This document shows, piece after piece, positions 25,914 to 51,119 of a stretch of 64,000 bases of DNA (positions are counted from its first letter, which is position 1; each line of letters starts with the position of its first letter). The translations under genes were made by a program, and so were the position numbers. The notes beneath the pieces are model-generated. The model saw nothing but the letters and a program-made list of their open reading frames with translations. It was not told where the DNA came from and made no database searches. The stretch is from Mobula birostris (lineage: Eukaryota): positions 85,770,198 to 85,834,197 of the forward strand of contig NC_092382.1 in assembly GCF_030028105.1 (NCBI RefSeq), in the 5' to 3' direction.

Positions 25914-26717
25914 ATGGCTCACCAGCGAGTTCACACCGGGGAGCGGCCTTTCACCTGTTCAGACTGTGGTAAAGGATTCACTCGGTCATCCACCCTAATG
26001 GCACACCAGCGAGTTCACACCGGGGAGCGGCCGTTCATCTGTTCAGACTGTGGGAAAGGATTCACTCGGTCATCTGACCTAATGGCACACCAGCGAGTTC
26101 ACACCGGAGAGCGGCCGTTCACCTGCTCAGACTGTGGGAAGGGATTCACTCAGTCATCTACACTGAAGGAACATCAGCGAGTTCACACTGGAGAGAGGCC
26201 GTTCACTTGTTCAGACTGTGGGAAGGGATTCACTAGGTCATCTAAACTGAAGGTACATCAGAGACTTCACACCGGAGAGAGGCCATTCACCTGCTCAGAC
26301 TGCGGGAAGGGATTCACTCAGTCATCCGACGTACTGGTACACCAGTCAGTTCACACTGAGGAGAGGCCGTTCACCTGCTCAGACTGTGGGAAGGGATTCA
26401 CTCGGTCATCCGAACTACTGGTACACCAGTCAGTTCACTCTGGGGAGAAGCCATTCAACTGCTCAGTCTGTGGGAAGAGATTCAGTCGGTCATCCACTCT
26501 TCAGAGACACCAGCGAGTTCACACTGGGGAGAAGCCATTCAACTGCTCAGCCTGTGGGAAGAGATTCACTCAGTCATCCCATCTACTGAGTCATCAGCGA
26601 GTTCACACTGGGGAGAAACCGTTCACCTGCTCAGAATGTGGGAAGGGGTTCACTCGGTCATCCCAACTACTGGCACACCAGTCAGTTCATACGGGAGCAG
26701 CCGTTCACCTGCTGTGA
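25914..26717 (+). CDS. C2H2 zinc-finger protein ZNF-B (9 intact fingers, no effector domain)
   Basis: 267-aa ORF made of C-x2-C-x12-H-x3-H fingers with TGERPF linkers. Confidence 0.9.
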
Positions 26718-27156
26718 ATGTGGGAAAGGATTCATGTGGTCATCTCATCTGCAGAGACACCAGTGAGTTTACACCGGGACGAGGCCGTTCAGCTGTTCAG
26801 ACATTGGGAAGAGTTTCTCTCAGCCTTCTCAATCAAACGTGCATCATTGAGTTCACACTGGGAGAGACGGTTCACCTGCTGTGAATGTGGGAAGGGATTC
26901 CCTCAGTAATCTAACCTTGTGACACACTACCGGGTTCACACTGGGGAGAAAGTTTCAATAAGCTGCATGCTGGATATTTATCCATCACCGTTGCTGAATG
27001 CAATTTCGAGAGTGACTGTCGGTGCTGAACTCTGCAATTATTGCTGCTGCTCACCACACCCAGTTCTGCACCCTGGTCACTGGACATGGGAGGAGTTTCT
27101 TCTGCTGCACATTCACCTTTAATGGGACTGGAGTTTAATATTCTGGATCTGAGACA

Positions 27157-27162
27157 AATAAA
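27157..27162 (+). promoter_or_regulatory. Putative poly(A) signal of ZNF-B
   Basis: AATAAA downstream of the decayed 3' fingers, conserved at 49621-49626 in ZNF-C. Confidence 0.55.
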
Positions 27163-27534
27163 TCAGTTCTATTTTGAACTCTGTCTCCGGTACTTAGTGA
27201 ATTTATAACACACCTAGTGTACAGTAGACAGTCAACTCAGGCCGGCTGGACCCTACCAGTGATTCTGTTCCATGACAGTCCTTTTGAATTCTCCCCTGTT
27301 GTTCACCTCTCGCTCTGCCTGTGGTGATGGGTTCCAAATAGTCTCCACTCTGTGGGTGAAGAGGTTTCCCTTGAATTCTCTGCAGACTGAAGAAGTCAAG
27401 TTGACTGCAATTCTATCTGACATGCCCTTCTCCCCTGAAATCTCTGGGCTGAGGAAGAATGACATTGGTAGTTAACCTCCTCATTCATGGCTGATTTCCA
27501 CATTATGGGTCATGTTCCCTGCTTCTGAAGAGTT

Positions 27535-28545
27535 AACATAGAAGCATAGAAAACCTACAGCAGAATAGAGTCCCTTCAGCCCACAAAGTTGTGCTGAACA
27601 TGTCCCTACCTCAGAAATTACTCGGGTTATCTATAGCCCTCTATTTTTTCTGAGCTCCATGTACCGATCCAAAAGTCTCTTAAGTTATCCTGCCCCACTG
27701 TTGACGGCAGCCAATTCCACTCGCTCACCACTCTCTGTGGAAAACACTTACCCCTGACATCTCTGCTGCACCTTCTCCCCAGCACCTTAAACCTGTGCCC
27801 TGTTGTGGCAGCCATTTCAGCCCTGGGAAAAAGCCTCTGACTATCCACACGATCAATGCCTCTCATCATCTTATACACCTCTATCAGGTCACCTCTCATC
27901 CTCCGTCTCTCCAAGGAGAAAAGGCCAAGTTCACTCAACCTGTTTTCATAGGCATGCTCCCCAATCCAGGCAACATCCTTGTAAATCTCCTCTGCACTCT
28001 TTCTATGGTTTCCACACCCTTCCTGTAGTGAGGCGACCAGAACTGAGCACAGTACTCCAAGTGGGTTCTGAATAGGGTCCTATATATCTGCAACATTCCC
28101 TCCCGGCTCGTAACTTCAATTCCACAATTGATGATGGTCAATACACCGTACACCTTCTTAACCACAGGGTCAACCTGCGCAGCTGCTTTGAGTGTTCTAT
28201 CGACTCAGACCCCAAGATTCCTCTGATCCTCCACACTGCCAGGAGTCTTAAATTAATGCTACATTCTGCCATCATATTTGACCTACCAAAAGGAACCACT
28301 TCACATTTATCTGGGTTGAACTCCATCTGCCACTTCTCAGCCCAGTTTTGCATCCTATCAATGTCCTGCTGTAACCTCTGACAGCCGTCCACACTATCCA
28401 CAACACCCCCAACCTTTGTGTCATCAGCAAACTTACTAACCCATCCCTCTACTTCCTCATCTAGGAAATTTATAAAAAAAGTCACTAAGAGTAAGGGTCC
28501 CAGAACAGATCCCTGTGGCCCACCACTGGTCACCAGCCTCCTGGT
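27535..28545 (-). mobile_element. CR1 LINE RT and 3' end
   Basis: PQGSVLGPLL, FADD, LEYCAQFWSP, RGDLIEVYK, and tail. Confidence 0.88.
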
Positions 28546-29865
28546 TGTGCCTAGCTGGGAATCAGCTATTTTGGATTTGGTGTTGTGCAATGAACCGATT
28601 TAGAGCACTTAAGGTAAAAGAACTCTGAGGGGCAAGCGATCTTAATGTAATTGAATTCACCCTGAAATTTGAGATGGAGAAGCTAAAGTGAGACGTATCA
28701 GTATAACCATGGAATAAGGACAGCTGCAGAGGCATGAGAAAGGAACTGGTCAAATTTGATAGGGGAAAAAAACACTGGCAGGGATGATGGCTAAGCATCA
28801 GTGGCTGTAATTACGGGAAGCAATTCGGAAGACACGGGATATATACATTCTGAAAAGGAAGAACTATTCTAAAGACAACATCACACAACCTCAGCGAATG
28901 AGAAGGCAAAGCCAACATAAAAGCCAAAGAGAGGGTAGATCACAGAGCAAAAATTGATGGGAAGTTAGATGATTGGGAAACTTTTCTGAACAAACAAGAG
29001 GCAATTAAAAAAGTAATTAAGAAAGAAAAGATGGAATATGAAGCTAGCTAATTACATTAAAGATGATACCAAATGTTTCTTCAGATACATAAAGTGTAAA
29101 AGAGAGGCAAGAGTGATATTGGACCAGAGGAAAACGATGTCTGGTGAGAGTGGGGTGGGTAGTAATGGCGAACAAGGAGATGGCAGGTGAACTGATTTAG
29201 TATTTTGTTTCAGTCTTCATTCTGGAAGCAACCAACGGGAAGGTGGAAGTCCAGATGTCAGTGTCAGAAGTGTGTGAAGTTGCTGATACTCGAGAGAAAT
29301 TTCCTGTGAAACAGAAAGGTCTGAAGGTAAATAGATCACCTGGACCAGATGGTGTAAATCCCAGAGTTCTGGAAGAGGTGGCCGAAGAGATTGTGGAGGT
29401 ATTAGTAATGATGTTTCAAGAATCAATAAAGTCTGATATGGTTGCAGAAGACTCCAAATTTGGAAATATCACTCTGCTATTCAAGAAGGGAGAGAGATAG
29501 AAGAACGTAAGTTTTAGGATAGTTAGTCTGACCTCATTGGTTGGGTAGGTATTAGTGTCGGTTGTTCGGGATGTGTTCTCAGGGCACTTTGAGGCACATA
29601 ATAAAATCGGCCTTCAGCATGTTTGCCTCCAGGGAAAATCTTGCCTGAACAGTGTGTTGAAATTCTTTGAATTTATTGAAGTGGTAATAGCAAGATAGTC
29701 AAAGGAGAATCGGTTGATGATGTCCACCTGCACTTTCAGAGGGTGTTTCACAAGGTGCCACACATGAGGCTGGTTAACAAGTTATGAGCCCATGATATTA
29801 CAGGTGTTCCAAACTTCATGGGTATCTTGTGACTGTCTTATGACCATGATGATACAATGATACAA

Positions 29866-30768
29866 AGATTGGAGGTGTAGTAGACAGTGAGGAAGGTTTT
29901 CAGAGCCTGCAGAGGGACTTGGACCAGCTGGGAAAATGGGCTGAAAAATGGCAGATGGAGTTTAATACAGACAAGTGTGAGGTATTGCACGTTGGAAGGA
30001 CAAACCAACGTAGAACATACAAGGTAAATGGTAGGGCACTGAGGAGTGCAGTAGAACAGAGGGATCTGGGAATACAGATACAAAATTCCCTAAAAGTGGC
30101 GTCACAAGTAGATAGGGTCGTAAAGAGAGCTTTTGGTACATTGGCCTTTATTAATCAAAGTATTGAGTATAAGAGCTGGAATGTTATGATGAGGTTGTAT
30201 AAGGCATTGGTGAGGCTGAATCTGAAGTATTGTGTTCAGTTTTGGTCACCAAATTACAGGAAGGATATAAGTAAGGTTGAAAGAGTGCAGAGAAGGTCTA
30301 CAAGCATGTTGTCAGGACTTGAGAAACTCAGTTACAGAGAAAGGTTGAATAGGTTAGGACTTTATTCCCTGGAGCGTAGAAGAATGAGGGGAGATTTGAA
30401 AAAGGTATATAAAATTATGATGGGTATAGATAGAGTGAATGCAAGCAGGCTTTTTCCACTGAGGCAAGGGGAGAGAAAAAAACAGAGGACATGGGTTAAG
30501 GGTGAGGGGGGGAAAGATTAAAGGGAACATTAGGGGGGGATTCTTCACACAGAGAGTGGTGGGAGTATGGAATGAGCTGCCAGATGAGGTGGTAAATGCG
30601 GGTTCTTTTTTAACATTTAAGAATAAATTGGACAGATACATGGATGGGAGGTGTATGGAGGGATATGGTCCATGTGCAGGTCAGTGGGACTAGGCAGAAA
30701 ATGGTTCGGCACAGCCAAGAAGGGCCAAAAGGCCTGTTTCTGTGATGTAGTTTCTATGGTTTCTATGA
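29866..30768 (+). mobile_element. Younger 5'-truncated CR1 LINE
   Basis: 200-aa RT C-terminal ORF (29919-30521) and (TTTCTATG)n tail. Confidence 0.9.
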
Positions 30769-31583
30769 TGTAATTAAGTATGTGATGAGCATGATGTAAT
30801 CGTCTTGTGGAGGTCACATGATGTAATTTTCCCACCGATGTGAGGTCACGTGATGACATGTTCTCACCAGGTATATAAAGGGAGACCTCTGGTGCGATGT
30901 AATTAGTTTTTCCAGTTGAGTTTTAAGTTTAGTTTGTTATTTAATTCGTCAGATATTCTGTTATGCTGCATATTTCTTTAGTTTCCCTCTAAAGTGGAGG
31001 TCTATTTTCTATTGTAAGTAGTATTGCAGAGTGAAGACCTTACTAAAGTACAGGAACTCACAGAGTCAAGTAAAGCTGATGTCGTTCGGCTGTATTGGAG
31101 AGGATCGACATTTATTGAATCTTCGTTCAAGAAATAGTGACCTGCGTCTGACATATCCTCTGCTAAAGCAGGAAGGATTGTGGAGTATCTATTTTCCAAA
31201 GGAAAAGATCAGTTCCTTTAAACCGTTTTATTTCCGTCGTTGTGAATCCTGCGGACAAGGGAGGGTTCGGCTGGGATCAGCAGCAATGTCACGTCTTCGA
31301 GGAATTCATTACTTTAGGAAAGTCTCTCCTAATTGGCTGTATAAATGTCTTGGACTTTCGAATTTACCATTCGAAGAACTGTGTTCGGATTTACCACTTT
31401 AAGAACAGTTTTCACATTTACCATTTTAAGAACTGTTTCAGAGTTGCCATAGAGCAGTTAACTTCCGGTTAGGTTAGTCATTTAAATACATTTCGCTACT
31501 TTTGAGCAGAGTTTAATAAAATGTTTGTTTGTTTTTATAAAACCTGACTCAATTCTGTAGTCATTGTTATCGGTCACTTGACA
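30769..31583 (+). mobile_element. Solo LTR (~815 bp) with TATA box and poly(A) signal
   Basis: TG...CA ends, TATATAAA at about 30872, AATAAA at about 31515. Inverted copy at 45201-46014. Confidence 0.75.
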
Positions 31584-32038
31584 TCGGAAAGATTATTGCA
31601 TGGATAAAACAGTGGCTGATTGGCAGATGCAAAGGATAGTAATAACGGGGATGTTTTCTGGTTGGCTGCCGGTGACTAGTGATGTTCCACAGGACATGGA
31701 TGACAAAATTAATAGCTTTATTGCAAAGTTTGCCGATCATATCAAGAGAGCTGAAGGGCCAGGTAGTTTTGAGGAAGCAGAAAGGCTAGAAAAGGACTTT
31801 GGCGCTTAGAGGAATGGGCGTAAATGAAGCAGATGGAATACCATGTCCCGAAGTGTATAGCCATGCACATTGGGGAACGAAATACCGAATACACTATTTT
31901 CCAAATAGTCTAAATTTGGGAGCACTTGTGCAGGATTCCTTCAACGATAATTTGTAGTTTAAGTCGGTGGTGAGGAAGACACCGAGTCCTAGCCCAGACC
32001 CTGAGTCCCAGCCTAGTCCAGGGCCTGAGTCCTTGTGT

Positions 32039-33508
32039 TGTCATGGTCCGGTCCGTGAAGTCCGCATTCCGGTTCACGGTCTGGTCTGTGGACCCAGGAC
32101 TCTGGGTCTTCTAGCTGTCCCTCATTTGGTTGAGTTAATCATAGGCACCTGATTCCCATCTTTAGGCTTGGAAAATAAGTAGCCTTGGGGTTGAGTGTGG
32201 TCTGCTGGTTTGTCTCGTTAGTCCCCTTTGGAGCAACCTGCTGATGGAAGGCTAGTGAAACCATCCGTGATCTCTAGGCCTGGTTGGAGGACCAACGCTT
32301 CATTGAGCGTTGTTGCCACTCGTCAGAGCAGTCATCGTGGTATGGAGTTGGCCGTTTCTGTAGCCAGCCAAGGTTGCTGACTGCCACGAGACTCAGAGAC
32401 ACCCCCGGATTGAGCTGCTTTCCTGTCCTTGCCTCTGTTGGGTAAGCCAGGCTGTAATTGCCGTTACCCTGCGGTTGGTTCTGTCCCTTCCTGTACCTTG
32501 TCTCCGTCAGGTAAGCAGGCCATTTGCCGTTACCCTGCGGTTGGTTCTGTCCCTTCCTGTACCTTGTCTCCATCGGGTAAGCAGGCCGTTTGCCATTACC
32601 CTGCGGTTGGGTCGGTCCCTTCCTGTCCTTGCCTCCGTGGGGGGAAGTTCTGCGTCCTGCCCAGGAGAAACTCCAAGAACACAAGCCTCGAAGATCACAA
32701 CCCAAGATTCAAGAACACAAGCCTCGAAGACCTAAGACCCCAGCCTGCATCCAAGCTCAGGATCCAGGATCCCAGCCTGCAGCCAAGCCCAAGGCCCAGG
32801 ACCCCAGCCTGCAGCCACGCCCGAGGCCCAGGACCCCAGCCTGCAGCCACGCCCGAGGCCCAGGACCCCAGCCTGCAGCCACGCCCGAGGCCCAGGACCC
32901 CAGCCTGCAGCCACGCCCGAGGCCCAGGACCCCAGCCAGCAGCCACGCCCGAGGCCCAGGACCCCAGCCTGCAGCCACGCCCGAGGCCCAGGACCCCAGT
33001 CTGCAGCCACTTCCGAAGCCCAGGACCCCAGCCTGCAGCCACGCTCGAGGCCCAGGACCCCAGCCTGCAGCCACGCCCGAGGCCCAGGACCCCAGCCTGC
33101 AGCCACGCCCGAGGCCCAGGACCCCAGCCTGCAGCCACGCTCAAGGCCCAGGACGCTAGCTTCAAGCCTCAAGAGCAAAGACCCCAGCCTGTCTCCAGGC
33201 TCAGGCCTCTAGACCCCAGCCTCGTCCTGCTCTGAAGCCATGTCATGTCCTTGCCTGGTTCTGGAGTCCGAGCCCGAGGCAAGACCCAGGTTCTGGGTCT
33301 TTGTCCAGTCTCGGGCTCGGAGTCGAAGCCTTGTCTCCTAGTCCATGGTTTCTAGTATTGGTCCCGCTTTCCGAAGCCCAAGTCTGCATTCTTGTCCTTG
33401 CTTCTTGCCTGTATCCTGTCACGTCCTTACTCTAATCAAGTCCTGTTCCTTGTACTTCAGTGTCTGTGTCTTCCATTTGGGTCCGTTCCCAACGCCCCCG
33501 TTGTGACA
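32039..33508 (+). mobile_element. Solo LTR nested in a related LTR fragment (31976-33636)
   Basis: TGTCATGG...TGTGACA termini, flanks tgtgt/tgtgc. Shares sequence with 18250, 38901 and 43295. Confidence 0.8.
32737..33152 (+). repeat. 32-bp GC-rich minisatellite (~13 units)
   Basis: Unit ggaccccagcctgcagccacgcccgaggccca, period 32 (for example 32831 and 32863). Confidence 0.95.
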
Positions 33509-33719
33509 TGTGCAGTACGCTTATTCCCGCTTCCGTTTTGCTCTTCCTATAATGAATAATAAAATCAATTTAGTTAATCCTACAAAACGTGTTTGTGACC
33601 TGTATTTGGGTCCACCCCAGTGCCCCCATTATGACAGAAGGTTGGTAAGTTTTCCGGACAGATGGTGTACATTCAAGGGTTTAGAAACAATTAGCTGAAG
33701 AGTTTGTGCAGACATTCGG

Positions 33720-34620
33720 GTCATAGAGCAGTACAGCACAGAATAATGCCATACGGCCAGTCTAATCTGTGCCAACCCATCAATCTGCCTCATTCCAGCA
33801 ACCTCCAACGTGACCATATTCCCCATACCCCTCTCATCCATGAACCCATCCAAACTTCTCTTAAATGTTGAAATCCAACCGGCCACTTGCTCTGGCAGCC
33901 CATTCCACAATATCACCACCTCTGAGCGAAGAAGCTCCCCCTCATTTTCCTCTTAAAGAATGAGCCATGATATTTGAAGAATCACTAGATTTGGGAATGG
34001 TTATGGCGGACTAGAAAGTTGCAAATGCCACTCCATTCTTTAAGAGGGGATGGAAGCATAAGAAATGAAATTACAGGACAGTTAGTCTGACCTCAGTAGT
34101 TGGGAAGATGTTGGAGTCCATTAACGATGAGGTTTCAGGGTACTTGGAGCGGATGATAAAGTACAGCCAAAGTCGGCATGGTTTTCCTCGGGAGAAATAT
34201 TCCCAGATAAATCTGTTGGAATTCTGTGGTGAAATAAGAACAGCGGTGAATGTTGTTTGTTTGGATTTTCAGACAAGGTGCTGCACCTGAGGCTGATTAA
34301 CAAGGCCACAGCTCATGGTATTTGGCGTTTTTGTGCCTGTTCCCGCTGGAGCTTAGAGGGGGAGTTCCCGAATACTGAAAAGCCCAGATAGGGAGGATGT
34401 GGACAGGATGTTTCCCTTAAGGCAGAGCCCAGGACCGGGGGCACACCCCCAGACTACAGGGAAATCAATTCAGAAGGGAGATGAGGAGGAAGTCTTGTGG
34501 TAATATGTTTATTCAACACGGCCGTGTCTGATCTATGCTTCTGTGCCCATTCCCTTCTATCTCCACCTCAAATGTACCCAGACACCCGCCTTCACGCCCT
34601 CGGGGCAGCGAATCTTAAGA
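33720..34620. mobile_element. Degraded CR1 fragments
   Basis: VILWNGLPEQV...FKRSLDGFM (-) and NYRTVSLTSVVGKML...LDFQ (+). Mirrored at about 42170-43080. Confidence 0.7.
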
Positions 34621-34739
34621 AAAACGTACATTCAACTCAGTTAGATAGATAGATAGACACTTCACTGATCCTAAAATAAATTACAAGGAAGATTTAGAAT
34701 TCCAATAATTTCCATATGTCTCAATTTAAAATGAACGGC

Positions 34740-35650
34740 CCTTTCGATCCCTCTTCGTTTCTCTCCTACTGATCGACGGAGATATCTAATAGCCCGTCTC
34801 TTACCCTCGTTTATCTCCCACCATCTCAATCTGTAGTTTCCATCCCCGTTTAACTCCCACTGCCCATCTCTCTTCCCTCCCATATTCCCTCCAACCTCTC
34901 TCCTGCGTCAATCCCTCCAATGCCACTCTCTGCCCCCTCACTTGCTCCCCATTTATTTCTCACCCACGTCCATCTCACTTCCTGCCATTCTCTCCCCTCA
35001 CTGGTTGTCGCCGCCGTCTCTCTCCCCTCTGTTTCTCGCCTCGGACACTTCACTCCCATCTCTCCTCAGTCTGTCCCGCTCACTCTCCCTCAACCAGTCT
35101 CCCTCTTCCCCTTGGTTCTCTCTCCCTCAGTGTCTGCTTCATCCGACTCCGAATGTCAGTGAGTTCCGATGTCCAGACAGAACACCAAGGCTGGTTGCCT
35201 TGTCGACAATTGTGTCTCTGTCACCATCGCACATTGTGACGTGGGACGGGGTGCTATCCTGGTGTGAACACGGGCCGAGATTCAGTGTCAGTCTGTCATG
35301 GTTGGGGGGGGGGAGCGGGTGAGGACGGTGGTGGTTTGTAGACAGAAAGGGGAGAAGAGAAGTGAGAGTGGCAGAAAGTTCAGGTGAGCGGAGTAAGAGA
35401 GGGAGGTGAGGGAGACGGAATGGGTGTAAAAGTGTGAGCGGAGAGGAGGAGAGGAGGAAGGGGAGAGTAAGAGAAGATGGAGGAGAGAAACAGAGAGGAT
35501 GGTGTGCTGAGGAGTGAGAGGATGGTGAATGGTAGGGAGGAAAGGAGTGACAGATAAAGTGAGCGCACTATGGAGAGAGGAGGGAGCAAGATGTTGAGGA
35601 AGCTATGCACACTCAGTGTTGAGGGAGTTCCACTCCCTCTGTCCCACTCA
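34740..35650. repeat. Polypyrimidine tract, ~190-bp unique core, then polypurine tract
   Basis: C/T-rich 34740-35130 and G/A-rich 35340-35600. Mirrored at 41135-42050. Confidence 0.75.
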
Positions 35651-36591
35651 CAGTAACTCTTCTAAAGATGTATTTTCATCAATGTAACAGGATTCAGCAC
35701 GCTGCGATCATGTGCTATTCTGAACTGAAATGAAAGGCCAACCCAGAGAGATGAAGAAATCATCACAGTAGAACGGTGATTCCCTCTGGGGGCGGTTACG
35801 TGTCCTAAGATGGCTTTAGGAACAAATAACACTCGCCAGGGGGGCGTTCAAGATTCCTGATGGGGCGGTAATCTGTCTCGAACTTGAAGCACCAGACCTG
35901 ACCGACCGTTAGTAGAACAGGCACTTCCAAAAAAAGATGTGGCGCTGGGACACAGGAAGAAGCATAGCACTGCAGGCCTTGAGCATTCGTCATCACAACG
36001 CATCTGACACTCGGCAATCTCGTCCGACCATACAAATGTCACGGACGTTGTTGGGGATGCTTAAATTAGCAACGAGGGTGCTCGACAGTTCGCCTTGACT
36101 TGCGGCACTAGGGGTGAAATAGGTTGGGAAACACTGCTATTGAAAAAGAGTTAGCCAATAGATGAGTGTAATTGTCCATGGATGAGATTCCCACAATGTG
36201 AGCAAACGAGGAAAGCGTCCAACGTCAGGCTCAAACTGAAGACCTCTTCCCAGAAACTGAGTGGTTCCTTGTGTCAATACAGGACCAGGCAGTTGACACA
36301 AAAATAACAAAAATGCACATTAAAAGACTAACAAGTTCAAGACGAAGTATGCTGTGCCTCTCTCGGGCTCCAAAGCAGAATCTGTCAATTGAAACGAGAA
36401 ACATTGGAGTATCCAACAACAATTAATTTCAATCTGGTTACTTACACAGGCACCATCAAGTGGCAAGCATCATTCACCAGAATCTTGCTTTAGGAATCAA
36501 AGTCATGAAAGACCCTATAGTTTACTATAAACTCTTGCCTGATCCCGTTTTGGAGTTGGAGTCTGACAATTATATTACGACCAACCCATTA

Positions 36592-37941: not shown

Positions 37942-38137
37942 AGGGCGATACATGATCCCCATCCGGATATCACAGGGTAAACATGCAAAGACAATTTACT
38001 TGATAGGTACAGCAACTCCTACACACAACACACAGAAATCAGTATGAGAAAATCACCAGGAATATGCTGAATTGATAGAGGAAAATGAAAGTCTGCGATT
38101 CATGAGCAGGGTAAACATTGTCCCAATTGTAGTGTAT

Positions 38138-38470: not shown

Positions 38471-38900
38471 ACGACTGGTGTCATCCCAAAATCACTACAC
38501 AATAACGTTAAACAATTGGACCTGCCGGAAAATAATAAACACTGCTAGAAAAGGCTGAACATTCATCGGAACTGAGAAATGAGTTCCTTGTCTATGTCTA
38601 TTTCTCAGTTTTAACTGAGAAAAAATAAAAACAACGTTAAACATGCGATTGTACTGTGGTGAATACAGGGCAGCTTCAACGTGCAGTTTGCACGGGTGGA
38701 AATTTATGAAAAAATCAGGAAGCGATGTGACATTTTTCCTTGAAGCAGAGTAAGCATTTATTTGCTCTATGGAGATTTGTCCAATTATGAACCAAATCCA
38801 GGAGTTCAGTAGTGTTAATCATTTCTCCTTGACAGGTTTATCTAATATGAAGGACAAGTACTGTAAGTTCGTGCAGACTGTTGACTTTCTTTTTCATTTC

Positions 38901-40030
38901 TGTCATGGTCCGGTTTGTGAAGTCTGCATTCCGGTTCACGGTCCGGTCCATCGATCCTTGTTCCAGGTTTCCTGTTTCCCCCCTTGTTCGGTTGGTGCCT
39001 TAATTGAGGCACCTGATTCTCATTTCGGTCTGGCACGCAAGTAGCTCTGCGAACCAGGGATTGTTTGCTGGACTGTTCCCTTCCCTCTTCCTGCCGCCTG
39101 AAACTTTCGCCTACAACCTCGTCAGTATGCCCGTCAAGTTCAACAGCTGCAGTGAGACCAGAGCCTTGCCACGCCAAGATAAGGAAGTTGAGTTTGGAAT
39201 GGTCTCTTCTTGCCTCCGTGTTTAGCGTCCGTGTCTAAGACGAGTCCCGGCCCTATGACCTGTTCCCAAGGAGGGGTCCTGGTTCTGTGTTCTCTGTTCC
39301 TGTGTTTCAAGTCCCAGGCTCTGTGGTCCTGTGCTTCAAGACCAAGTCCAGGATCTGTGTTCCAGCCCTGTCCATATCTGCGCTTCGTGTCCTCACCCAG
39401 TTCTGGTGCCTCGTCCAGCCCAGGAGTACTTCGCCACCTCGGTGCTGGAGATTCCTCGTCCTGTGCTGGATCGCCCGCATCCGAATCCTCGGCAGTCATC
39501 TCGGCGCTGCGTCCAAGAAAGGGTCCCGGTCCTGCGCTCCAAGTAGGGGTCCCGGCTCCGTACCCAAGAGCCTCACTAAGCCGAGTCCAAGAGCCGAGAC
39601 AAAACTAGTCCAAGAGCCTCGTCCTTCCCTGGAGTACCTCGTCTAGTCCAAGAACCTCGTCCTGTCCAAGTCAAGACTTTGTGTTCTCGTCTTGTCCATG
39701 TGCCTCGTCCTGTGCAAGAGTTCCACGTCCAGTCCTGTAGCCACGTCTCGTCCTCGCCGAGATCCGGGGTCCAAGCCCGATTCAAGACCTAGGTTCCTTG
39801 TCCCTGGCCAGTCTCTGGCTCGGGAGTCCTAGCCCAGGCTCCTAGTTCCAAGTTCCTTGTCCTGGTCCCGCTTTCCTAGTCTTAGTCCTAGCCCAGGCGC
39901 GGTGTCCTTGCCTCGTCCAGGGTCTGTGTCCATGTCCTGCTTCGTTCCTTCCTGACTCCCCTAGCTTTCTTGACAAACCTAGTCCTATTCCTAGAACTGC
40001 AGTGTCTGTGTCTTGCATTTGGGTCCGCTG
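38901..40030 (+). mobile_element. LTR of the same family, 3' terminus missing (in the palindrome spacer)
   Basis: Starts TGTCATGGTCCGG. Matches the family end gtgtctgtgtcttgcatttgggtccg, then stops short of TGACA. Confidence 0.72.
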
Positions 40031-43000
40031 CCAGGTGCAATTTTGCCGATTAGGACTTGAATGTCCCCGGATCCTCTCCCGCTTTATCATTACCGAAAGG
40101 GTTGTGGCTGTTACAGGAGCCGGAATATGGTGGGGAAATAAACATAAAAGGTAGGGTGAGTTCAATAATTGGTTGGAAGTGGATGTCGCGGTCTGAAGGT
40201 GTGAATGTGTATTTTCCTGTGTTTTGCCTCTCTCGGGCTTTAAAACAGTTTTACTCTCCCCGCTACCATATTCTCCCGTGTCAGTTCTGCAGTGTCAAGA
40301 TGGAAATCACCACAACCCCCTCTGAGAAGATCAGTTCTTTTGTTTATTAAGTAGTTGAATAATTGACGTGAGTGGGTATTTCGCCGCGCTAATGAGCTGC
40401 TCTCTGAACTTGGACTGAGTTACCCCATAAATAAGCGTTTGTGAGAGAGGCACAACACACTTCGTCTTGAACTTGTTAGACTTTTAATGTGCAGTTTTGT
40501 TATTTTTGTGTCATCTGCCCGGTCCTGTATTGACACAAGGAACCACTCAGTTTCTGGGAAGAGGACTCCAGCTTTCAGCCTGACGTTGGACGCTTTTCTC
40601 GTTTGCTCACATCGTGGGGATCTCATCCACGGACGTTTATGCTCATCTATTGTCTAACTCTTCCTTCTGTAGCAGTGTTTCCCAGCCTATTTCACCCCTA
40701 GTGCCGCGAGTCAAGGGGAACCGTCGAGCACCCTCGTTTCTGTGAGGTTGGTAAGGTCGGCCGAGATTGAAGAGAGGTTGCCGATGACTGCTCAAGGCCT
40801 GCAGTGCTTTGCTTCTTCCTGTGTCCCAGCGCCACATCCTGTTTTGGAAGTGCCTGCTCTGCTAAAGGTCGGTCAGGTCTGATGCCTCAAGTTGGGGGGG
40901 GGGGGGTCGCTGACCGCTCCACCAATAATCCTGAACGCCCGCCCCCCGCCCGGTGATCGTTATTTGATCCTAAAGGCATCTTCGGACACGTCACCGTCCC
41001 CAGAGGTAATCACTGTTTTATTGTGATAGTTTCTTCATATTTCTGGTTTAAGCTTTCATTTCAGTTCAGAATAGCACATGCTCGCACCGTGTTGGATCCT
41101 GCTTTCGTTGATGGATATATATCCTTAGATGATTGACTGTGAGTGGGACAGAGGGAGTGGAACTCCCCCAACACTGTGTCTGAGTGTCCTCAGCTCCCTC
41201 AACATCTCGCTACCTCCTCTCTCCATAGTGAGCTCACTTTATCTGTCACTCCTTTCCTCCCTACCCTTCACCCTCCTCTCACTCCTCAGCACACCATCCT
41301 GTTTCTCTCCTCCATCTTCTCTTACTCTCCCCTTCCTCCTCTCCTCCTCTCCGCTCACACTTTTACACCCATTCCGTCTCCCTCACCTCCCTCTCTTACT
41401 CCGCTCACCTTAACTTTCTATCACTCTCACTTCTCCCCTTTCTGTCTCCAAAGCACCACCATCATCACCCGCTGCCCCCCGCCCCCCAACCATGACAGAC
41501 TGACACTGAATCTCGGCCCGTGTTCACACCAGGATAGCACCCCGTCCTACGTCACAATGTGCGATGGTGACAGAGACACAATTGTCGACAAGGCAACCAG
41601 CCTTGGTGTTCTGTCTGGACATCGGAACTCACTGACATTCGGAGTCGGATGAAGCAGACACTGAGGGAGAGAGAACCAAGAGGAAGAGGGAGACTGGTGG
41701 AGGGAGAGTGAACGGGACAGACTGAGGAGAGTTGGGAGGGAAGTGTCCGAGGCGAGAAACAGAGGGGAGAGAGACGGCGGAAACAACCAGTGAGCGGAGA
41801 GAATGGCGGGAAGTGAAATGGACGTGGGTGAGAAATACATGGGGAGCGAGTGAGGGGGCAGAGAGTGGCGTTGGAGGGAATGGCAGAGGAGAGAGATTGG
41901 AGGGAATATGGGATGGAAGGAAGATGGGGAGTTAAACTGAGATAGAAACCAGGGATTGAGACGGTGGAGATAAGCGAAGTAAAGAGACGGGCGATTTGAT
42001 ACCTCTGTTGATCAGTGGGAGAGAAGCGGACAGGAATCGAAAAGGGCTGCTCATTTTAAATTGAGATGTATGGAAATTATTGGAATTCTAAATCTTCCTT
42101 GTAATTTCTTTTAGGATCAGTGACGTGTTTATCTATCTACCTAGCTGAGTTGAGTGTAGGTTTTTCTTAAGATTCGCTGCCCCGAGGGCGTGAAGGCAGG
42201 TGTCTGGGTACATTTGAGGTGGAGATAGAGGGGGAATGGGCACAGAAGCATAGATCAGTCACGGCCGTGTTGAATAAACATATTACCACAAGACTTCCTC
42301 CTCATCTCCCTTCTGAATTGACTTCCCTGTAGTTTGGGGGTGTGCCCCCGGTCCTGGGCTCTGCCTTAAGGGAAACATCCTGTCCACATCCTCCCTATCT
42401 CGGCTTTTCAGTATTCGGGAACTCCCCCTCTAAGCTCCAGCGGGAACAGGCACAAAAACACCAAATACCATGAGCTGTGGCCTTGTTAATCAGCCTCAGG
42501 TGCAGCACCTTGTTTGTTAAAGACCATCTGAAAATCCAAACAAACAACATTCACCGCTGTTCTTATTTCACCACAGAATTCCAACAGATTTATCTGGGAA
42601 TATTTCTCCCGAGGAAAACCATGCCGACTTTGGCTGTACTTTATCATCCGCTCCAAGTACCCTGAAACCTCATCATTAATGGACTCCAACATCTTCCCAA
42701 CTACTGAGGTCAGACTAACTGTCCTGTAATTTCATTTCTTATGCCTCCCTCCCCTCTTAAAGAATGGAGTGGCATTTGCAACTTTCTAGTCCGCCATAAC
42801 CATTCCCAAATCTAGTGATTCTTCAAATATCATGGCTCATTCTTTAAGAGGAAAATGAGGGGGAGCTTCTTCGCTCAGAGGTGGTGATATTGTGGAATGG
42901 GCTGCCAGAGCAAGTGGCCGGTTGGATTTCAACATTTAAGAGAAGTTTGGATGGGTTCATGGATGAGAGGGGTATGGGGGATATGGTCACGGCGGAAGTT

Positions 43001-43294
43001 GCTGGAATTTGGCAGATTGATGGGTTGGCACAGATTAGACTGGCCGTATGGCTTTACTCTGTGCTGTACTGCTCTATGACCCGAATGTCTGCACAAACTC
43101 TTCAGCTAATTGTTTCTAAACCCTTGAATGTACACCATCTGTCCGGGAGACTTGCCTGCCTTCTGTCATAATGGGGGAACCGGGGCGGACCCAAATACAG
43201 GTCACAAACACGTTTTGTAGTAGGGTTAACAAAATTGACTTCATTACTCGTTACAGGAAGAGCAAAACGGAAGCGGGAATAAGCGTACTGGACA

Positions 43295-44745
43295 TGTCAC
43301 AACGGGGGCGTTCGGAACGGACGTAAATGGAAGACACAGACACTGAAGTACAAGGAACAGGACTCAATTAGATTAGGGACGTGACAGGATACAGGCAAGA
43401 AGCAGGGACAAGAATGCAGACTTGGGTTTAAGAAAGTGGGACCAGGACTAGAAACCATGGACTAGGAGACAAGGCTTCGATTCCGAGCCCAAGACTGGAC
43501 AAAGACCCAGAACCTAGGTCTTGCCTTGGGCTCGGACTCCAGAACCAGGCAAGGACATGACATGGCTTCAGAGCAAGACGAGGCTGGGGTCTACAGGCCT
43601 GAGCTGGGAGACAGGCTGGGGTCCTGGGCCTTGAGCTTGGCTGCAGGCTGGGGTCCTGGACCTTGAGCTTAGCTGCAGGCTGGGGCCCTGGGCCCTGAGC
43701 TTGGCTGCAGGCTGGGGCCCTGGGCCCTGAGCTTGGCTGCAGGCTGGGGCCCTGGGCCCTGAGCTTGGCTGCAGGCTGGGGCCCTGGGCCCTGAGCTTGG
43801 CAGCAGGTTGGGGCCCTGGGCCCTGAGCTTGGCTGCAGTCTGGGGTCCTGGGCCCTGAGCTTGGCTGCAGGCTGGAGTCCTGGGCCCTGAGCTTGGCTGT
43901 AGGCTGGGGTCCTGGGCCTTGAGCTTGGATGCAGGCTGGGGTCCTGGGCCTTGAGCTTGGTTGCAGGCTGGGGTCCTGGGTCTTGAGCTTGGCTGCAGGC
44001 TGGGGTCCTGGGTCCTGAGCTTTGATGCAGGCTGGGGTCCTGGGTCTTGAGCATGGCTGCAGGTTGGGGTCTTGAGCTTGGCTGCAGGCTGGGGTCTTAG
44101 ATCTTCGAGGCTTGTGTTCTTGGAGCTTGGGTTGTGATCTTCAAGGCCTGGATTCTTGGACCTTCTCCTGGGCAGGACATGGAACTCCTGGGCAGGACAG
44201 GATACTTCACCCCACGGAGGTAAGGACAGGAAGGGGCCGACCCAACCACAGGGTAACGGCAAATGGCCTGCTTACCCGATGGAGACAAGGTACAGGAAGG
44301 GACAGAACCAACCACAGGGTTACGGCAATTACGGCCTGGCTTACCCAACAGAGGCAAAGACAGGAAAAGAGCTCAATCTGGGGTGGCTCTGAGTCTTGTG
44401 GCAGTCAGCAACCTTGGCTGGCTACAGAAACAGCCAATCCATACCACGATGACTGCTCTGACGAGTGGCAACAAGGCTCAATGAAGCGTTGGTCCTCCAA
44501 CCAGGCCGAGAGATCACGGATGGTTTCACTAGCCTTCCATCAGCAGGTTGCTCCAAAGGGGACTAACGAGACAAACCAGCAGCTCATACTCAACCCCAAG
44601 ACTACTTATATTCCAAGCTGAAAGATGGGAATCAGGTGCCCATGATTAACTCAACCAAACAAGGGACAGCTGGAAGACCCAGAGTCCTGAGTCCACGGAC
44701 CGGACCGTGAACCGGAATGCGGACTTCACGGACCAGACCATGACA
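43295..44745 (-). mobile_element. Solo LTR (inverted copy of 32039-33508)
   Basis: Same termini and flanks. Confidence 0.85.
43612..44097 (-). repeat. 32-bp minisatellite, CpG-free variant
   Basis: Unit ggctgcaggctggggccctgggccctgagctt on the + strand. Confidence 0.95.
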
Positions 44746-45200
44746 ACACAAGGACTCAGGCCCTGGACTAGGCTGGGACTCAGGGTCTGGGCTAGGACTC
44801 GGTGTCTTCCTCACCGCCGACTCAACCTACAAATTATCCTTTAAGGAATCCTGCACAAGTGCCGCCAAGTTTAGACTATTTGGAAAATAGTGTATTCGGT
44901 ACTTCGTTCCCCAATGTGCATGGCTATACACTTCGGGACACGGTATTCCATCTGCTTCATTTACGCCCTTTCCTCTAAACGCCAAAGTCCTTTTATAGCC
45001 TCTCTGATTCCTCAAAACTACCTGGCCCTTCAGCTCTCTTGATATGATCGGCAAACTTTGCAATACAGCTATTAATTCTGTCATCCAAGTCCTGTGGAAC
45101 ATCACTAGTCACCGGCAGCCAACCAGAAAACATCCCCGTTATTACTATCCTTTGCATCTGCCAATCAGCCACTGTTTTATCCATGCAATAATCTTTCCCA

Positions 45201-46014
45201 TGTCAAGTGACCGGTAACAATGAATATAGAATTGAGTCAGGTTTTATAAAAACAAACAAACATTTATTAATCTCTGCTCAAAAGTAGCAAAATGTATTTA
45301 AACGACTAACTTAATCAGAAGTTAACTGATCTACGGCAACTCTGAAACAGTTCTTAAAAGGGTAAATGCGAAAACAGTTCTTAAAGTGGTAAATTCGAAC
45401 CCAGTTCTTAGAATGGTAAATTCAAAAGTCCGAGAGATTTATACAGTCAGTTAGGAGAGACTTTCCTAAAGTAAAGAATTCCTCGAGGACGTGACATTAC
45501 TGCTGACCCCAGCCGGAACCTGCCTTGTCCGCAGGATTCACGGCGACGGAAATAAAATAGTTTAAAGGAACTGACCTTTTCCTCTGGAGAATAGTTACTG
45601 CACAATTCTTCCTGCTTTAGCAGAGGATATGTCAGATGCAGGTCACTATTTCTTGAACGAAGATTCAATAAAGGTCGATCCTCTCCAATATAGCTGAACG
45701 ACATCAGCTTTACTTGACTCTGTGAGTTCCTGTACTTTAGTAAGGTCTTCACTCTCCAATACTACTTACAGTAGAAAATAGACCTCCACTTTAGAGGGAA
45801 ACTAAACGAATATGCAGCATAACGGAGTATCTGACGAATTAAATAACAAACTAAACTTAAAACTCAACTGGAAAAACTAACTACATCGCACCAGAGGTCT
45901 CTCTTTATATACCTGGTGAGAACATGTCATCACGTGACCTCACATCGGTGGGAAAATTACATCATGTGACCTCCACAAGACGATTACATCATGCTCATCA
46001 CATACTTAATTACA
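45201..46014 (-). mobile_element. Solo LTR (inverted copy of 30769-31583)
   Basis: Reverse-complement similarity and TG...CA ends. Confidence 0.75.
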
Positions 46015-46920
46015 TCATAGAAACCATAGAAACTACAGCACAGAAACAGGCCTTTTGGCCCTTCTTGGCTGTGCCGAACCATTTTCTGCCTAGTCCCACT
46101 GACCTGCACACGGACCATATCCCTCCATACACCTCCCATCCATGTATCTGTCCAATTTATTCTTAAATGTTAAAAAAGAACCCGCATTTACCACCTCATC
46201 TGGTAGCTCATTCCATACTCCCACCACTCTCTGTGTGAAGAATCCCCTCCTAATGTTCCCTTTAATCTTTCCCCCCCTCACCCTTAACCCATGTCCTCTG
46301 TTTTTTTTCTCTCCCCTTGCCTCAGTGGAAAAAGCCTGCTTGCATTCACTCTATCTATACCCATCATAATTTTATATACCTTTATCAAATCTCCCCTCAT
46401 TCTTCTACGCTCCAGGGAATAAAGTCCTAACCTATTCAACCTTTCTCTGTAACTGAGTTTCTCAAGTCCTGACAACATGCTTGTAGACCTTCTCTGCACT
46501 CTTTCAACCTTATTTATATCCTTCCTGTAATTTGGTGACCAAAACTGAACACAATACTTCAGATTCGGCCTAACCAATGCCTTATACAACCTCATCATAA
46601 CATTCCAGCTCTTATACACAATACTTTGATTAATAAAGGCCAATGTACCAAAAGCTCTCTTTACGACCCTATCTATTTGTGACACCACTTTTAGGGAATT
46701 TTGTATCTGTATTCCCAGATCCCTCTGTTCTACTGCACTCCTCAGTGCCTTACCATTAACCCTGTATGTTCTACCTTGGCTTGTCCTTCCAAAGTGCAAT
46801 ACCTCACACTTGTCTGTATTAAACTCCATCTGCCATTTTTCAGCCCATTTTTCCATCTGGTCCAAGTCCCTCTGCAGGCTCTGAAAACCTTCCTCACTGT
46901 CTACTACACCTCCAATCTTT
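46015..46920 (-). mobile_element. Younger CR1 (inverted copy of 29866-30768)
   Basis: 193-aa ORF sharing idiosyncratic substitutions (RRSTSMLSG, RQGERKK) with the left copy. Confidence 0.9.
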
Positions 46921-46979
46921 GTATCATTGTATCATCATGGTCATAAGACAGTCACAAGATACCCATGAAGTATGTAACC

Positions 46980-49250
46980 CCTGTAATATCATGGGCTCAT
47001 AACTTGTTAACCAGCCTCATGTGTGGCACCTTGTCAAACACCCTCTGAAAGTGCAGGTGGACATCATCAACCGATTCTCCTTTGTCTATCTTGCTATTAC
47101 CACTTCAATAAATTCAAAGAATTTCAACACACTGTTCAGGCAAGATTTTCCCTTGAGGCAAACATGCTGAAGGCCGATTTTATTATGTGCCTCAAAGTGC
47201 CCTGAGAACACATCCCGAACAACCGACACTAATACCTACCCAACCAATGAGGTCAGACTAACTGTCCTAAAACTTCCGTTCTTCTATTTCTCTCCCTTCT
47301 TGAATAGCAGAGTGATATTTCCAAATTTGGAGTCTTCCGCAACCATATCAGACTTCATGGATTCTGAAACATCATTACTAATAGCTCCACAATCTCTTCG
47401 GCCGCCTCTTGCAAAAATCTGGGATGTACACCATCTGGTCCAGGTATCTATTTACCTTCAGACCTTTTCTGTTTCCCAGGAACCTTCTCTCGAGTAATGG
47501 CAACTTCACACACTTCTGACCATAGACATCTGGACTTCCACCTTTCCGTTGGTTGCTTCCACAATGAAGACTGATATGAAATACTTATTCAGTGCACCAG
47601 CCATCTCCTTGTCCCCTATTACTACTCACCCCACCCTCCCCAGGCATCGGTTCCCCTGGTTCGATATCCACTCTTGCCTCTCTTTTACACTTTATGTATC
47701 TGAAGAAACATTTGGTATCATCTTTGATGTAATTAGCTAGCTTCATGTTCCATCCTTCATTTCTTAATTACTTTTTTAGTTGTCTCTTGTTGGTATAGAA
47801 AAGTTTCCCAATCATCTAACTTCCCACCAGTTTTTGCTCTGTTATCTGCCCTCCCTTTAGCTTTTACGTTGGCTTTGCCTTCTCATCAGCCGTGGTTGTG
47901 TGATGATGTCTTTAGAATAGTTCTTCCTTTTTGGAACGTATATATCCTGTGTCTTCAGAATTGCTTCCCGTAATTACAGCCATTGATGCTTTGTCGTCAT
48001 CCCTGCCAGTGTTTTTCTCCCTATCAAATTTGGCCAGTTCCTCTCTCATGCCTCTGTAATTGTCCTTATTCCACAGTTGTACTGATACATCTCACTTTAG
48101 CTTCTCCCTCTCAAATTTCAGGATGAATTCAATTATATTATGATCGCTTTCCCCTCAGGGTTCTTTTACCTTAGGTGATCTCATTCCGTTCATTGCACAA
48201 CACCAAATCCAGAAATGCTGATTCCCAGCTGGGCACAACCAGGAGGTCGTTGCCCAGCTGTGTGCCTCAGTTATCTGTTCGAACCCTTACTCTTCGTGAT
48301 TTTTAGAAGTAACCTGGATGAGGAATTGAAGGGATGGGTTAGTAAGTTTGCTGATGACACAGAGGTTGGGGGTGTTGTGGAGAGTGTGGAGGCCTGTCAA
48401 AGGTTACAGTGGGACATTGATAGGATGCAAAACTGGGCTGAGAAGTGGCAGATGGAGTTCAACCCAGACAAGTGTGAAATGGTTCATTTTGGTAGGTCAA
48501 ATATGATGACAGAATGTAGTATCAATGGTAAGACTCTTGGCATTGTGGAGGATCAGAGGGATCTTGGGGTCCAAGTCAATAGGACGCTCAAAGCAGCTGC
48601 ACAGGTGGACTCTGTGGTTAAGAAGGCATACGGTGTATTGGCCTTCATCAATCGTGGAATTGAATTTCAGAGCCGAGAGGTAATGTTGCAGCTATATTGG
48701 ACCTTGGTCAAAACCCACTTGGAGTACTGTGCTCAGTTCTGGTCACCTCACTACAGGAAGGATGTGGAAACAAAAGAAAGGGTGCTGAGGAGATTTACAG
48801 GGATGTCGCCTGGATTGGGGAGCATGCCTTATGAAAACAGGTTGACTGAGCTCGGCCTTTTCTCCTCAGAGTGAAGGAAGATGAGAGGTGACCTGATAGA
48901 GGTGTAAAAGATGATGAGAGCCATTGATTGTGTGGATAGTCATGGGCTTTTCCCCAGGCCTGAAATGGCTGCCACAAGAGGGCACAGGGAGTAGGTACAA
49001 AGCTTGGGAGTCAGTACAGAGGAGACGTTGGGGGTAAGGTTTGTACGCAGAGAGTGGTGAGTGCATGAAATGGGCTGCCGGCAACAGTGGGGGAGGCTGA
49101 CACTATAGGGTATTTTAAGAGACTTTTGGATTGGTACATGGAGCTTAGAAACAGTTATGGGTAACCCTAGTAATTTCTAAGGTAGGGGTATGTTTGGCAC
49201 AACTTTGTAGGCTGAAGGGCCTGTATTGTGCTGTACGTTATTCTATGTAA
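46980..49250. mobile_element. CR1 fragments (mirror of 27535-29805)
   Basis: 48215-48874 RT peptide FADD...LEYCAQFWSP. Confidence 0.85.
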
Positions 49251-49697
49251 ACACTTCAGAAGCAGGGAAAATGACCCATAATGTGGAAATGAGCCATGAA
49301 TAAGGAGGTTAACTACCAATGTCATTCTTCCTCAGTCCAGAGATTAGAGGGGTGAAGAACATCTCAGACAGAACTGCAGTCAACTTGACTTCTTCAGTCT
49401 GCAGAAAATTCAAGGGGAACCTCTTCACCCACAGAGTGGAGACTTTTGGAACCCATCACCACAGGGAGAGCGAGAGGGGAACAACAGGGGAGGATTGAAA
49501 AGGACTGTCATGGAACAGAATCACTGGCAGGGTCCAGCCGGCCTGAGTTGACTCTTTACTGTACACAGGGTGTGTTATAAATTCACTAAGTACCAGAGAC
49601 AGAGTTTACAATAGAACTGATTTATTTGTCTCAGATCCAGAATATTAAACTCCAGTGTGTAGCAGAAGAAACTCCTCCCATGCCCAGTGACCAGGGT

Positions 49698-50042
49698 TTC
49701 AGGTTTCAGGTTTATTATCACCGGCATTTTAAGTGAAATTTGTTGATTTAGCAGCAGCAGTTCAATGCAATACATATTTTGGCATAGATAATAATATAAT
49801 ACATAAATTAAAACATAGTAAATAAACAAGTAAATCAATTATGCATAATGAATACATTATTAAAATGTGTAAAAACACAAATGCTGCATATTAAAAAAGT
49901 GTCCAAAGCTTTCAAAGTCCATTCAGGAATCGGATGGCAGAAGGGAAGAAGCTGTTCCTGAATCGCTGAGTGTGTGCCTTCAGGCTTCTGTATCTCCCAC
50001 CTGATGGCAACAGTGAGAAAAGGGCATGTCCTGGTTGCTGAT
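49698..50042 (-). mobile_element. Rex1-like LINE 3' end inserted in the ZNF-C 3' UTR
   Basis: PGHALFSLLPSGGRYRSL...SFFPSAIRFLN, with AATAAA and a (CCTGAAA)n tail. The empty site is seen in ZNF-B at about 27070. Confidence 0.85.
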
Positions 50043-50264
50043 GGTGCAGAACTGGGTGTGGTGACCAGCAGCAATAATTGCAGAGTTCAGCACCAACAGT
50101 CACTCTCGAAATTGCATTCAGCAACGGTGATGGACAAATATACGGTATGCAGCTTATTGAAACTTCCTCCCCAGTGTGAACCCTGTAGTGTGTCACAAGT
50201 TTAGTTTACTGAGCAAATCCCTTCCAACATTCACAGCAGTGTATGGCCTTTCCCCAGTGAGAAC

Positions 50265-51119
50265 TCAATGATGCACATTTGGTGGAGATGGCTGAGAGAA
50301 TCTCTTCCCAATATCTGAGCAGGTGAACGTCCTCGACCCGGTGTGAACTCGCTGGTGTCTCTGTAGGCTGGATGACCGAGAGAATCTCTTCCCACAGACT
50401 GAGCAGGTGAACGGCTTCTCCCCAGTGTGAACTCGCTGGTGTCTCTGTAGGTGGGATGATTGAGTGAATCCCTCCCCACAGTCTGAGCATGTGAACGGCC
50501 TCTCCCCAGTGTGAACTCGCTGATGTACCTTCAGTTGAGATGACTGAGTGAATCCCTTCCCACAGTGTGAGCAGGTGAACAGCCTCTCTCCGGTGTGAAC
50601 TCTCTGATGTACCTTCAGTTCATATGAGCAAGTGAATCCCTTCCCACAGTCTGAGCAGGTGAACAGCTTCTCCCCAGTGTGAACTCGCTGATGACTCTGT
50701 AGGTGTGATGACCGAGTGAATCTCTTCCCACAGTCTGAGCAGGTGAACGGCTTCTCCCCAGTGTGAACTCGCTGATGACTCTGTAGCTGGGATGATCGAG
50801 TGAATCCCTTCCCACAGTTTGAGCAGGTGAACGGCCTCTCTCCAGTGTGAACTCGCTGATGTACCTTCAGATTAGATGAGCAAAAGAATCCCTTCCCACA
50901 TTCTAAGCAGGTGAACGGCCACTCCCCTGTGTGAACTGACTTGTGTACCAGTAGTTTGGATGACCGAGTGAATCCCTTCCCACAGTCTGAGCAGGTGAAC
51001 GGCCTCTCTCCGGTGTGAACTCTCTGATGTCCCTTCAGTTTAGATGAGTACCTGAATCCCTTCCCGCAGTCTGGGCAGGTGAACGGCCGCTCCTCGGTGT
51101 GAACTGACTGGTGAGCCAT
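50265..51119 (-). CDS. C2H2 zinc-finger protein ZNF-C (9 intact fingers plus 1 degenerate, no effector domain)
   Basis: 284-aa ORF of canonical fingers. Confidence 0.9.

Follow-up and report, generated by a model that had tools for sequence, protein, structure and literature searches.

To our knowledge, the vertebrate zinc-finger (ZNF) expansions known to track transposons all carry a repressor-recruiting domain (KRAB, KRAB-like or FiNZ). Here we analyse a 64,000-nucleotide stretch of the genome of the ray Mobula birostris (assembly GCF_030028105.1, contig NC_092382.1, positions 85,770,198 to 85,834,197 of the forward strand; hereafter the window) that harbours three C2H2 finger arrays, ZNF-A, ZNF-B and ZNF-C (A, B and C in the following). 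A reading made from the letters of this stretch alone (hereafter the sequence-only reading) had taken them for finger-only paralogues that diversify rapidly and independently of KRAB, possibly for the surveillance of transposable elements. We are confident that the DNA-contacting residues of these fingers are under positive selection, and the arrays are probably separated from all upstream sequence by a stop codon that the three genes share.

Coevolution of ZNF genes and transposons was generalised beyond KRAB with the report of a ZNF-retroelement correlation across metazoans (Wells et al. 2023; PMC10547256), and there are earlier descriptions of ZNF expansion without KRAB. In the same work, the base-contacting residues of zebrafish FiNZ-ZNFs were found to be positively selected in two of seven FiNZ clades, and 315-3586 ZNF ORFs (open reading frames) were counted in eight chondrichthyan assemblies; sharks and skates are not mentioned in its main text as available. 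It had been speculated earlier that vertebrates without KRAB use alternative repressor domains (PMC4592553). Cartilaginous fish are reported to be without KRAB families: the families that they have lost are enriched for ones with KRAB domains (PMC8455134, on the whale shark), and the available text of PMC11603059 names only PRDM9 in the whale shark. The available text of a manta and devil ray genome preprint contains no occurrence of 'zinc finger'.

Like the KRAB zinc-finger protein (KZFP) clusters of tetrapods (PMC4592553), the ray genes show segmental duplication, gain, loss and mutation of fingers, and diversification of contact residues, with diversifying selection at helix positions -1, 2, 3 and 6 that is driven by -1, +3 and +6. 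However, no upstream KRAB exon was found in 230 intronic ORFs, and an in-frame TGA precedes the array; lacking KRAB, the ray genes have no direct route to TRIM28. With the FiNZ-ZNFs they share a KRAB-independent, lineage-specific and clustered expansion, an array in one exon and positive selection on contact residues. In FiNZ genes, an upstream coding exon supplies an acidic N-terminal domain of 28 residues, whereas the ray genes have an in-frame stop and a neutrally evolving leader and no N-terminal domain; the TGAs and the neutral leader speak against an in-frame FiNZ domain, although no FiNZ profile search was made. In addition, FiNZ is a cyprinid lineage, whereas the closest proteins here come from Mobula, Hypanus and Hemitrygon. 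As the defining domain of either family is absent, the ray genes evolve like KZFP and FiNZ clusters but are members of neither. Another comparison is with ZNF146/OZF, a finger-only protein that binds LINE-1 and, similarly, has about 10 C2H2 fingers and no other identifiable domain (PMC8896011). ZNF146 is highly conserved (PMC8896011), in contrast with the multi-copy, shuffled and positively selected ray genes; copy number, shuffling and selection all argue against a conserved ZNF146 orthologue, although no orthology tree was built.

Each ingredient is thus known, namely KRAB-less expansion and finger-only proteins, but we did not find described the combination of an expanded, positively selected, effector-less family founded by a nonsense mutation. 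No account of this ray family was found in the literature searched, which lay outside subscription journals and supplement files 3-5 of PMC10547256.

Three arrays of zinc fingers

A six-frame scan of the window revealed three C2H2 arrays, A on the - strand, B on the + strand and C on the - strand, with the following features.

1..639, - strand, ZNF-A array, 7 intact fingers, running beyond the window start
25914..26717, + strand, ZNF-B ORF, ATG 25914 to TGA 26717, 267 aa, a MAHQ half finger and then 9 intact C2H2 fingers
50265..51119, - strand, ZNF-C ORF, ATG 51119 to TGA 50265, 284 aa
26718..27180, + strand, 3' untranslated region (UTR) of B, with dead fingers and AATAAA at 27157
49600..50264, - strand, 3' UTR of C, with dead fingers and AATAAA at 49626

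B and C had been read as starting at a Met inside a half finger, and the ORFs bear this out, their initial Met lying 13 codons past an in-frame TGA. Fingers occupy the predicted proteins from residue 13 onward and leave only short tails. B ends by a frameshift in its last linker; C consists of the MAHQ half finger, 9 intact fingers and a broken tenth unit, and its 3' UTR carries a 353-bp insertion at 49698-50050 that is not in B. In A, ACG at 639-637 stands where B and C carry ATG, and the part of A inside the window has no in-frame Met.

The zinc ligands are intact in 25/25 fingers (B 9, C 9, A 7). B and C each contain nine fingers joined by TGEKP-type linkers under purifying selection, above the threshold of at least five linked fingers for arrays of this kind; each array is a tandem one within one terminal exon, in duplicated clusters, and the ORFs of B and C are predicted to encode finger-only proteins. 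The five best of 49 and the five best of 34 Pfam families matching the arrays are all C2H2 types. In the ESM Atlas, B is present letter for letter and resembles C2H2 clusters only. An exact-sequence look-up of B and C returned no entry in the protein collection searched, and Rfam gave 0 matches. Long open alternative frames (137-192 aa) also run over the arrays, at 26360-26884 (+), 50206-50619 (-) and 65-643 (-), as expected from finger codon usage.

The helix residues at -1, 2, 3 and 6 that had been listed match in 25/25 fingers, and the flanks of B and C align at 80-90%, as had been noted. The fingers themselves are not colinear: those at the same position in B and C have a mean identity of 0.805, versus 0.810 off the diagonal. 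The best partners are out of order (B3-C7 0.94, B6-C2 0.94, B8-C5 0.92, B4-C6 0.91 and B7-C9 0.91), and identity between fingers ranges from 70 to 94%. The idea of re-written recognition helices holds with qualifications. Variation is focused on -1, +3 and +6, and +2 is Ser in 22/25 fingers; in addition to point rewriting, much of what separates B from C is a changed order of related fingers. Helix position +1 is Ser in 25/25 fingers, with the codon TCA in all 25.

Positive selection on contact residues

The sequence-only reading had proposed to compare dN/dS (omega) at contact and scaffold positions, and there is an excess at the contacts. In a codon model of the 25 live fingers, omega was 2.18 at -1, 2, 3 and 6, 0.025 at six structural sites and 0.64 elsewhere, and the contact-site value differed from an omega of 1 (p 5.5e-4). 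Adding a CpG term and trying three frequency models left it at 2.15-2.20. Among the individual sites, +3 is the fastest (3.6), followed by -1 (2.3) and +6 (2.2). The last six codons of B9, which are frameshifted, were treated as missing data in the tree and the codon model.

Tests that do not use a tree agree. Within 12 disjoint closest pairs, 21/48 contact codons differ versus 22/144 other codons (p 1e-4), and contact pN is 0.279 versus a pS of 0.124 (2.25x, p 0.0013). The classical contact positions are three of the top four among 22 non-structural sites (p 0.01). The rapid diversification of contact residues that had been claimed is supported by both kinds of test. As for A, its zinc ligands have suffered 0 hits, versus 6.7 expected if it were neutral; together with the ACG, this may mean that A died very recently or that it uses a non-AUG start.

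One might argue that the turnover is largely non-adaptive, i.e. that this is a duplication-prone family in repeat-rich DNA whose arrays are shuffled by unequal exchange, that the high omega is an artefact of conversion and of constrained synonymous sites, and that many copies are dead, possibly including B and A. A fourth paralogue, D, is dead, A has no ATG, and B lacks the family's first exon and has an overlapping upstream ORF (see below). Furthermore, exchange between fingers is evident, and the unit B0/B1/B2 stems from a recent duplication within the array. This explanation is nevertheless unlikely: the zinc ligands are intact throughout and structural omega is very low, and the excess sits on three classical contact positions and holds without a tree.

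A leader derived from former coding sequence

The three genes have a splice acceptor in common (B 25506, C 51527, A 957), located 408 nt upstream of the start position in B and C and 318 nt upstream of it in A. The sequence-only reading had described neither this acceptor, nor the dead-finger leader with its shared stop, nor the ACG of A, nor any candidate for a first exon.

25506..25913, + strand, B exon leader, 408 nt from the acceptor onward, with four upstream AUGs
51120..51527, - strand, leader of the C exon, 408 nt, sharing the frame of the ORF but interrupted by TGAs at 51374 and 51158
640..957, - strand, leader of the A exon, 318 nt, carrying the acceptor that B and C also have
25875..25877, + strand, the shared in-frame TGA of B, in the C*IC dead finger

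The leader consists of a 38-codon spacer and then four dead fingers, the last of which (C*IC) bears the TGA in A, B and C (at 678-676 in A). The leader of A contains a further stop in a frameshifted stretch. Upstream sequence in frame with an array must therefore cross one or two TGAs. The leaders of B and C are 87% identical, and pN/pS in the finger frame is 1.06 when C is compared with B over 122 codons, and 0.76 when it is compared with A over 91 codons. Given this neutral evolution in the finger frame, the leader is best read as a 5' UTR that derives from former coding sequence, and as the shared stop cuts the array off from everything upstream, what is predicted to be translated is nine fingers without any further domain. 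The neutral leader and the extra stops led us to reject read-through or selenocysteine insertion at the shared TGA.

All leaders contain an 8-codon upstream ORF (MDS..H.N*) at 25721 (+), 51313 (-) and 832 (-), out of frame in a dead finger; it is the one short upstream ORF of the C leader. The upstream ORFs that are shared may be a matter of simple inheritance. By analogy with ATF4, the arrangement of upstream ORFs in B could throttle translation.

Search for an upstream effector domain

The absence of KRAB, SCAN and BTB domains had been asserted, along with the advice to look for an upstream exon encoding an effector domain. Pfam searches covered 230 ORFs of 36 aa or longer on the sense strand of the introns and found KRAB, SCAN, BTB or SET in none of them; those matching at or near the Pfam cut-off represent transposon domains. 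The KRAB independence of the genes is further supported by the in-frame stop, which bars fusion, by the neutral leader and by the unrelated upstream sequences of relatives.

It may be asked whether an N-terminal module is hidden, in the form of a short coding exon joined via a cryptic acceptor past the TGA or through read-through of the TGA. One candidate for such an exon is found in A.

4630..4777, - strand, candidate internal exon of A, 148 nt, with strong splice sites; an ATG at 4737 opens 36 codons, in phase 0

Its phase matches the acceptor, each of the three leaders has a length divisible by three, and the leader of B is open over 123 codons. The three genes also agree at every position of a 30-nt stretch around the TGA (p 0.026, shuffle), and all in-frame leader stops are TGA. 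However, leader stops block the way from this exon to the array, it is no better conserved than its surroundings (89% vs 85% in the flanks, p 0.17), its donor is deleted in C, and the exon is not in B. The leader is neutral and contains the second TGA in C and the stop in the frameshifted stretch of A, the upstream sequences of relatives are mutually unrelated, and some of the 30-nt stretch does not vary in any finger. A hidden module is thus highly improbable.

The relatives in question are models of ray proteins. A whole-protein search, in which 8000 candidates were scored, yielded 1154 matches, and the 120 listed include six elasmobranch proteins; the closest among the matches listed are from the myliobatiform rays Hemitrygon akajei, Hypanus sabinus and Mobula hypostoma. 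Both Hemitrygon akajei proteins of this finger type (P0002 and P0124) start with MAHQ. A profile of the spacer found 5 matches among 1.84 billion representative proteins, none of which combines the spacer with a long finger array, and in four of the five, all ray models, the same VKN start is preceded by unrelated sequences of 8-84 aa. NCBI models with this start are P0121, P0122, P0128 and P0129 of Hypanus sabinus and P0127 of Mobula hypostoma. P0127 is identical to the leader of C at 102/123 positions and terminates exactly at the shared stop position. The elasmobranch models P0002, P0124, P0127 and P0128, automatically named 'zinc finger protein 239-like' or 'XlCOF-like', have the MAHQ start or the same leader, and the model P0007 of the shark Mustelus begins directly with fingers; the literature searched yielded no account of their architecture or of selection on them. 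These ray models suggest that the truncation is likely older than A, B and C and common to myliobatiform rays.

The N-terminus of P0121 has no usable match in the ESM Atlas. P0121 and P0122 are spurious protein models from paralogues that carry frameshifted tandem copies of the first dead finger unit. P0130, a tandem-repeat protein without the spacer, was dropped.

Candidate promoters and first exons, and duplication history

Homologous CpG-rich promoter candidates lie upstream of A and C, and in both a short exon ends at AG|GTAAGA (4893 and 58928, respectively).

58701..59100, - strand, C promoter candidate, CpG-rich, with a GCGCATGCGC palindrome at 58963-58972
4701..5700, no strand assigned, CpG island, with the candidate exon 1 of A on the - strand (donor 4893, homologous to the donor of C)

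The candidate exon 1 of C is short and non-coding, and its use is inferred. The CpG island at 4701-5700, which contains an E-box and GCATGCGC motifs, also has a divergent exon candidate on the + strand with a donor G|GTGAGT at 5490. It is likely a bidirectional promoter with divergent donors (4893 on -, 5490 on +), and the + strand exon ending at 5490 is possibly the first exon of B. The homology of B to the introns of A and C ends at 20697, adjoining an L1-like element, and B accordingly has no copy of the family's exon 1.

Candidate first-exon joints of A, B and C were not seen in RNA. The joint between exons 1 and 2 of C (58928 to 51527) is not among the 15 listed of 2,467 contig joints on 49500-62500, a region swamped by repeats. 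Among the contig sets compared, 0 are recorded as RNA and 18/24 are RNA by guess only, with a best share of 0.29. Contigs cover the array, but as thousands of them fit two places, they say nothing gene-specific on expression. A contig joint at 49697-50051 corresponds to contigs without the insertion in the 3' UTR of C, which represent paralogues or alleles.

The promoter candidates are of the housekeeping type and the genes have no effector domain, two features that would suit proteins that regulate host promoters in an ordinary or dominant-negative way and compete there with zinc-finger proteins bearing further domains. Such targets would not normally push contact omega above 1 or shuffle fingers between young paralogues, and we consider this role very unlikely.

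Downstream of B and C, the locus contains a large inverted duplication, and a fourth paralogue is found near the end of the window.

27070..36364, + strand, left arm of the inverted duplication, 9.4 kb, downstream of B, 90% identical to 49697-40443
40443..49697, - strand, right arm of the same duplication, downstream of C
59638..61880, - strand, dead fourth paralogue D, with the acceptor region, 3' UTR remnants and decayed fingers

The arms, spanning 27070-49697, are separated by a 4-kb spacer, and they are 90% identical vs ~80% for the regions upstream of B and C, which suggests later homogenisation or a separate event. D is interrupted by a GIY-YIG (Penelope-like) element. Other repeats are found nearby. 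A repeated element with internal tandem units of 66-68 bp, 32 bp and 26 bp occurs in several copies (32420-33222, 43428-44316, 18507-18920 and 39140-39900). A decayed Gypsy-type LTR (long terminal repeat) retrotransposon pol, with RNase H and integrase, lies at 7579-10826 (-) in the putative intron of B. A Tc1-like DNA transposon at 21661-22940, with 229-bp inverted ends that are 94% alike, is inserted only upstream of B.

A tentative explanation and its significance

As their DNA-reading residues change at about twice the neutral rate, the arrays likely track fast-changing repeats such as transposons, and would do so without the silencing domain found in land vertebrates. Our tentative explanation is that this is a duplicated, finger-only ray family whose positively selected bare arrays would bind fast-changing repeat or transposon DNA. 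If the architecture and the positive selection are granted, a repeat or transposon target seems somewhat favoured, by analogy with KZFPs and FiNZ-ZNFs; the transposon surveillance proposed by the sequence-only reading draws on the same analogy.

The sequence of events would be as follows. In A, B and C, an ancestral exon of spacer and fingers bears a TGA in its fourth finger, and what lies before it evolves neutrally. The CpG-island promoter would make a short non-coding exon spliced onto the finger exon, and ribosomes would pass the short upstream ORF and initiate at the half-finger Met. Units of 20-25 kb multiplied via inverted segmental duplication, with fingers re-ordered and duplicated, zinc ligands retained, and -1, +3 and +6 outpacing synonymous sites. 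Copies would die frequently, as in birth-and-death families, which would account for D, for the missing ATG of A and for the missing first exon of B. The moving target would be repeat or transposon DNA, and the bare arrays would block access to it or recruit partners through their fingers. A bolder version, which we find doubtful, is that rays possess effector-less transposon tracking, by a founder gene that lost its N-terminus to a nonsense mutation, resumed translation from a Met within a broken finger, expanded under positive selection and represses via occlusion or finger-borne cofactor contacts.

The same proteins and the same selection might also reflect another moving target, such as RNA, viral nucleic acid, satellite or centromeric repeats, or meiotic recombination sites that turn over as with PRDM9. 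The PRDM9 array likewise changes fast at -1, +3 and +6 on a homogeneous scaffold, and without an effector the ray proteins have no direct silencing route. Moreover, C2H2 fingers can bind RNA and protein (PMC4592553). PRDM9 has SET, KRAB and SSXRD domains, whereas we found no PR/SET with KRAB and SSXRD in the ray genes, hence nothing for site marking; these are multi-copy, and their fingers, 70-94% alike, are far less homogeneous than a near-identical minisatellite. Multi-copy birth and death fits KZFP- or FiNZ-type clusters better, and another target is rather unlikely.

Several points weigh against the explanation by repeat-tracking bare arrays. The target is proposed solely by analogy with KZFPs and FiNZ-ZNFs. 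HEK293 cells that lost ZNF146 showed no change in expression (PMC8896011), so that binding by a finger-only protein does not have to mean silencing. The selection tests bear on 25 fingers of three genes only. Recombination inflates such tests, and exchange between fingers breaks the assumption of a tree. Some synonymous sites are invariant, including the TCA codon at +1, which can deflate dS. Position +2 is slow (omega 0.61), and -2 and +9 are also fast (2.2 and 2.0), neither being significant alone. With intact zinc ligands and no ATG, A requires in a simple model a very recent loss or a non-AUG start. B has no copy of the family's first exon, and its four upstream AUGs include that of an ORF from 25829, in a strong start context, which overlaps the main start out of frame. 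Finally, the NCBI ray models are predictions.

Should the target be something other than repeats, this would be a ZNF cluster of the ordinary birth-and-death kind whose origin by truncation is unusual. The ORFs of B and C are small, lie in a single exon each and are directly taggable and testable. If bare arrays are the selected unit in cartilaginous fish, sequence recognition alone could drive an arms race, and the bare-array state, if true, would be a plausible stage before effector domains were added.

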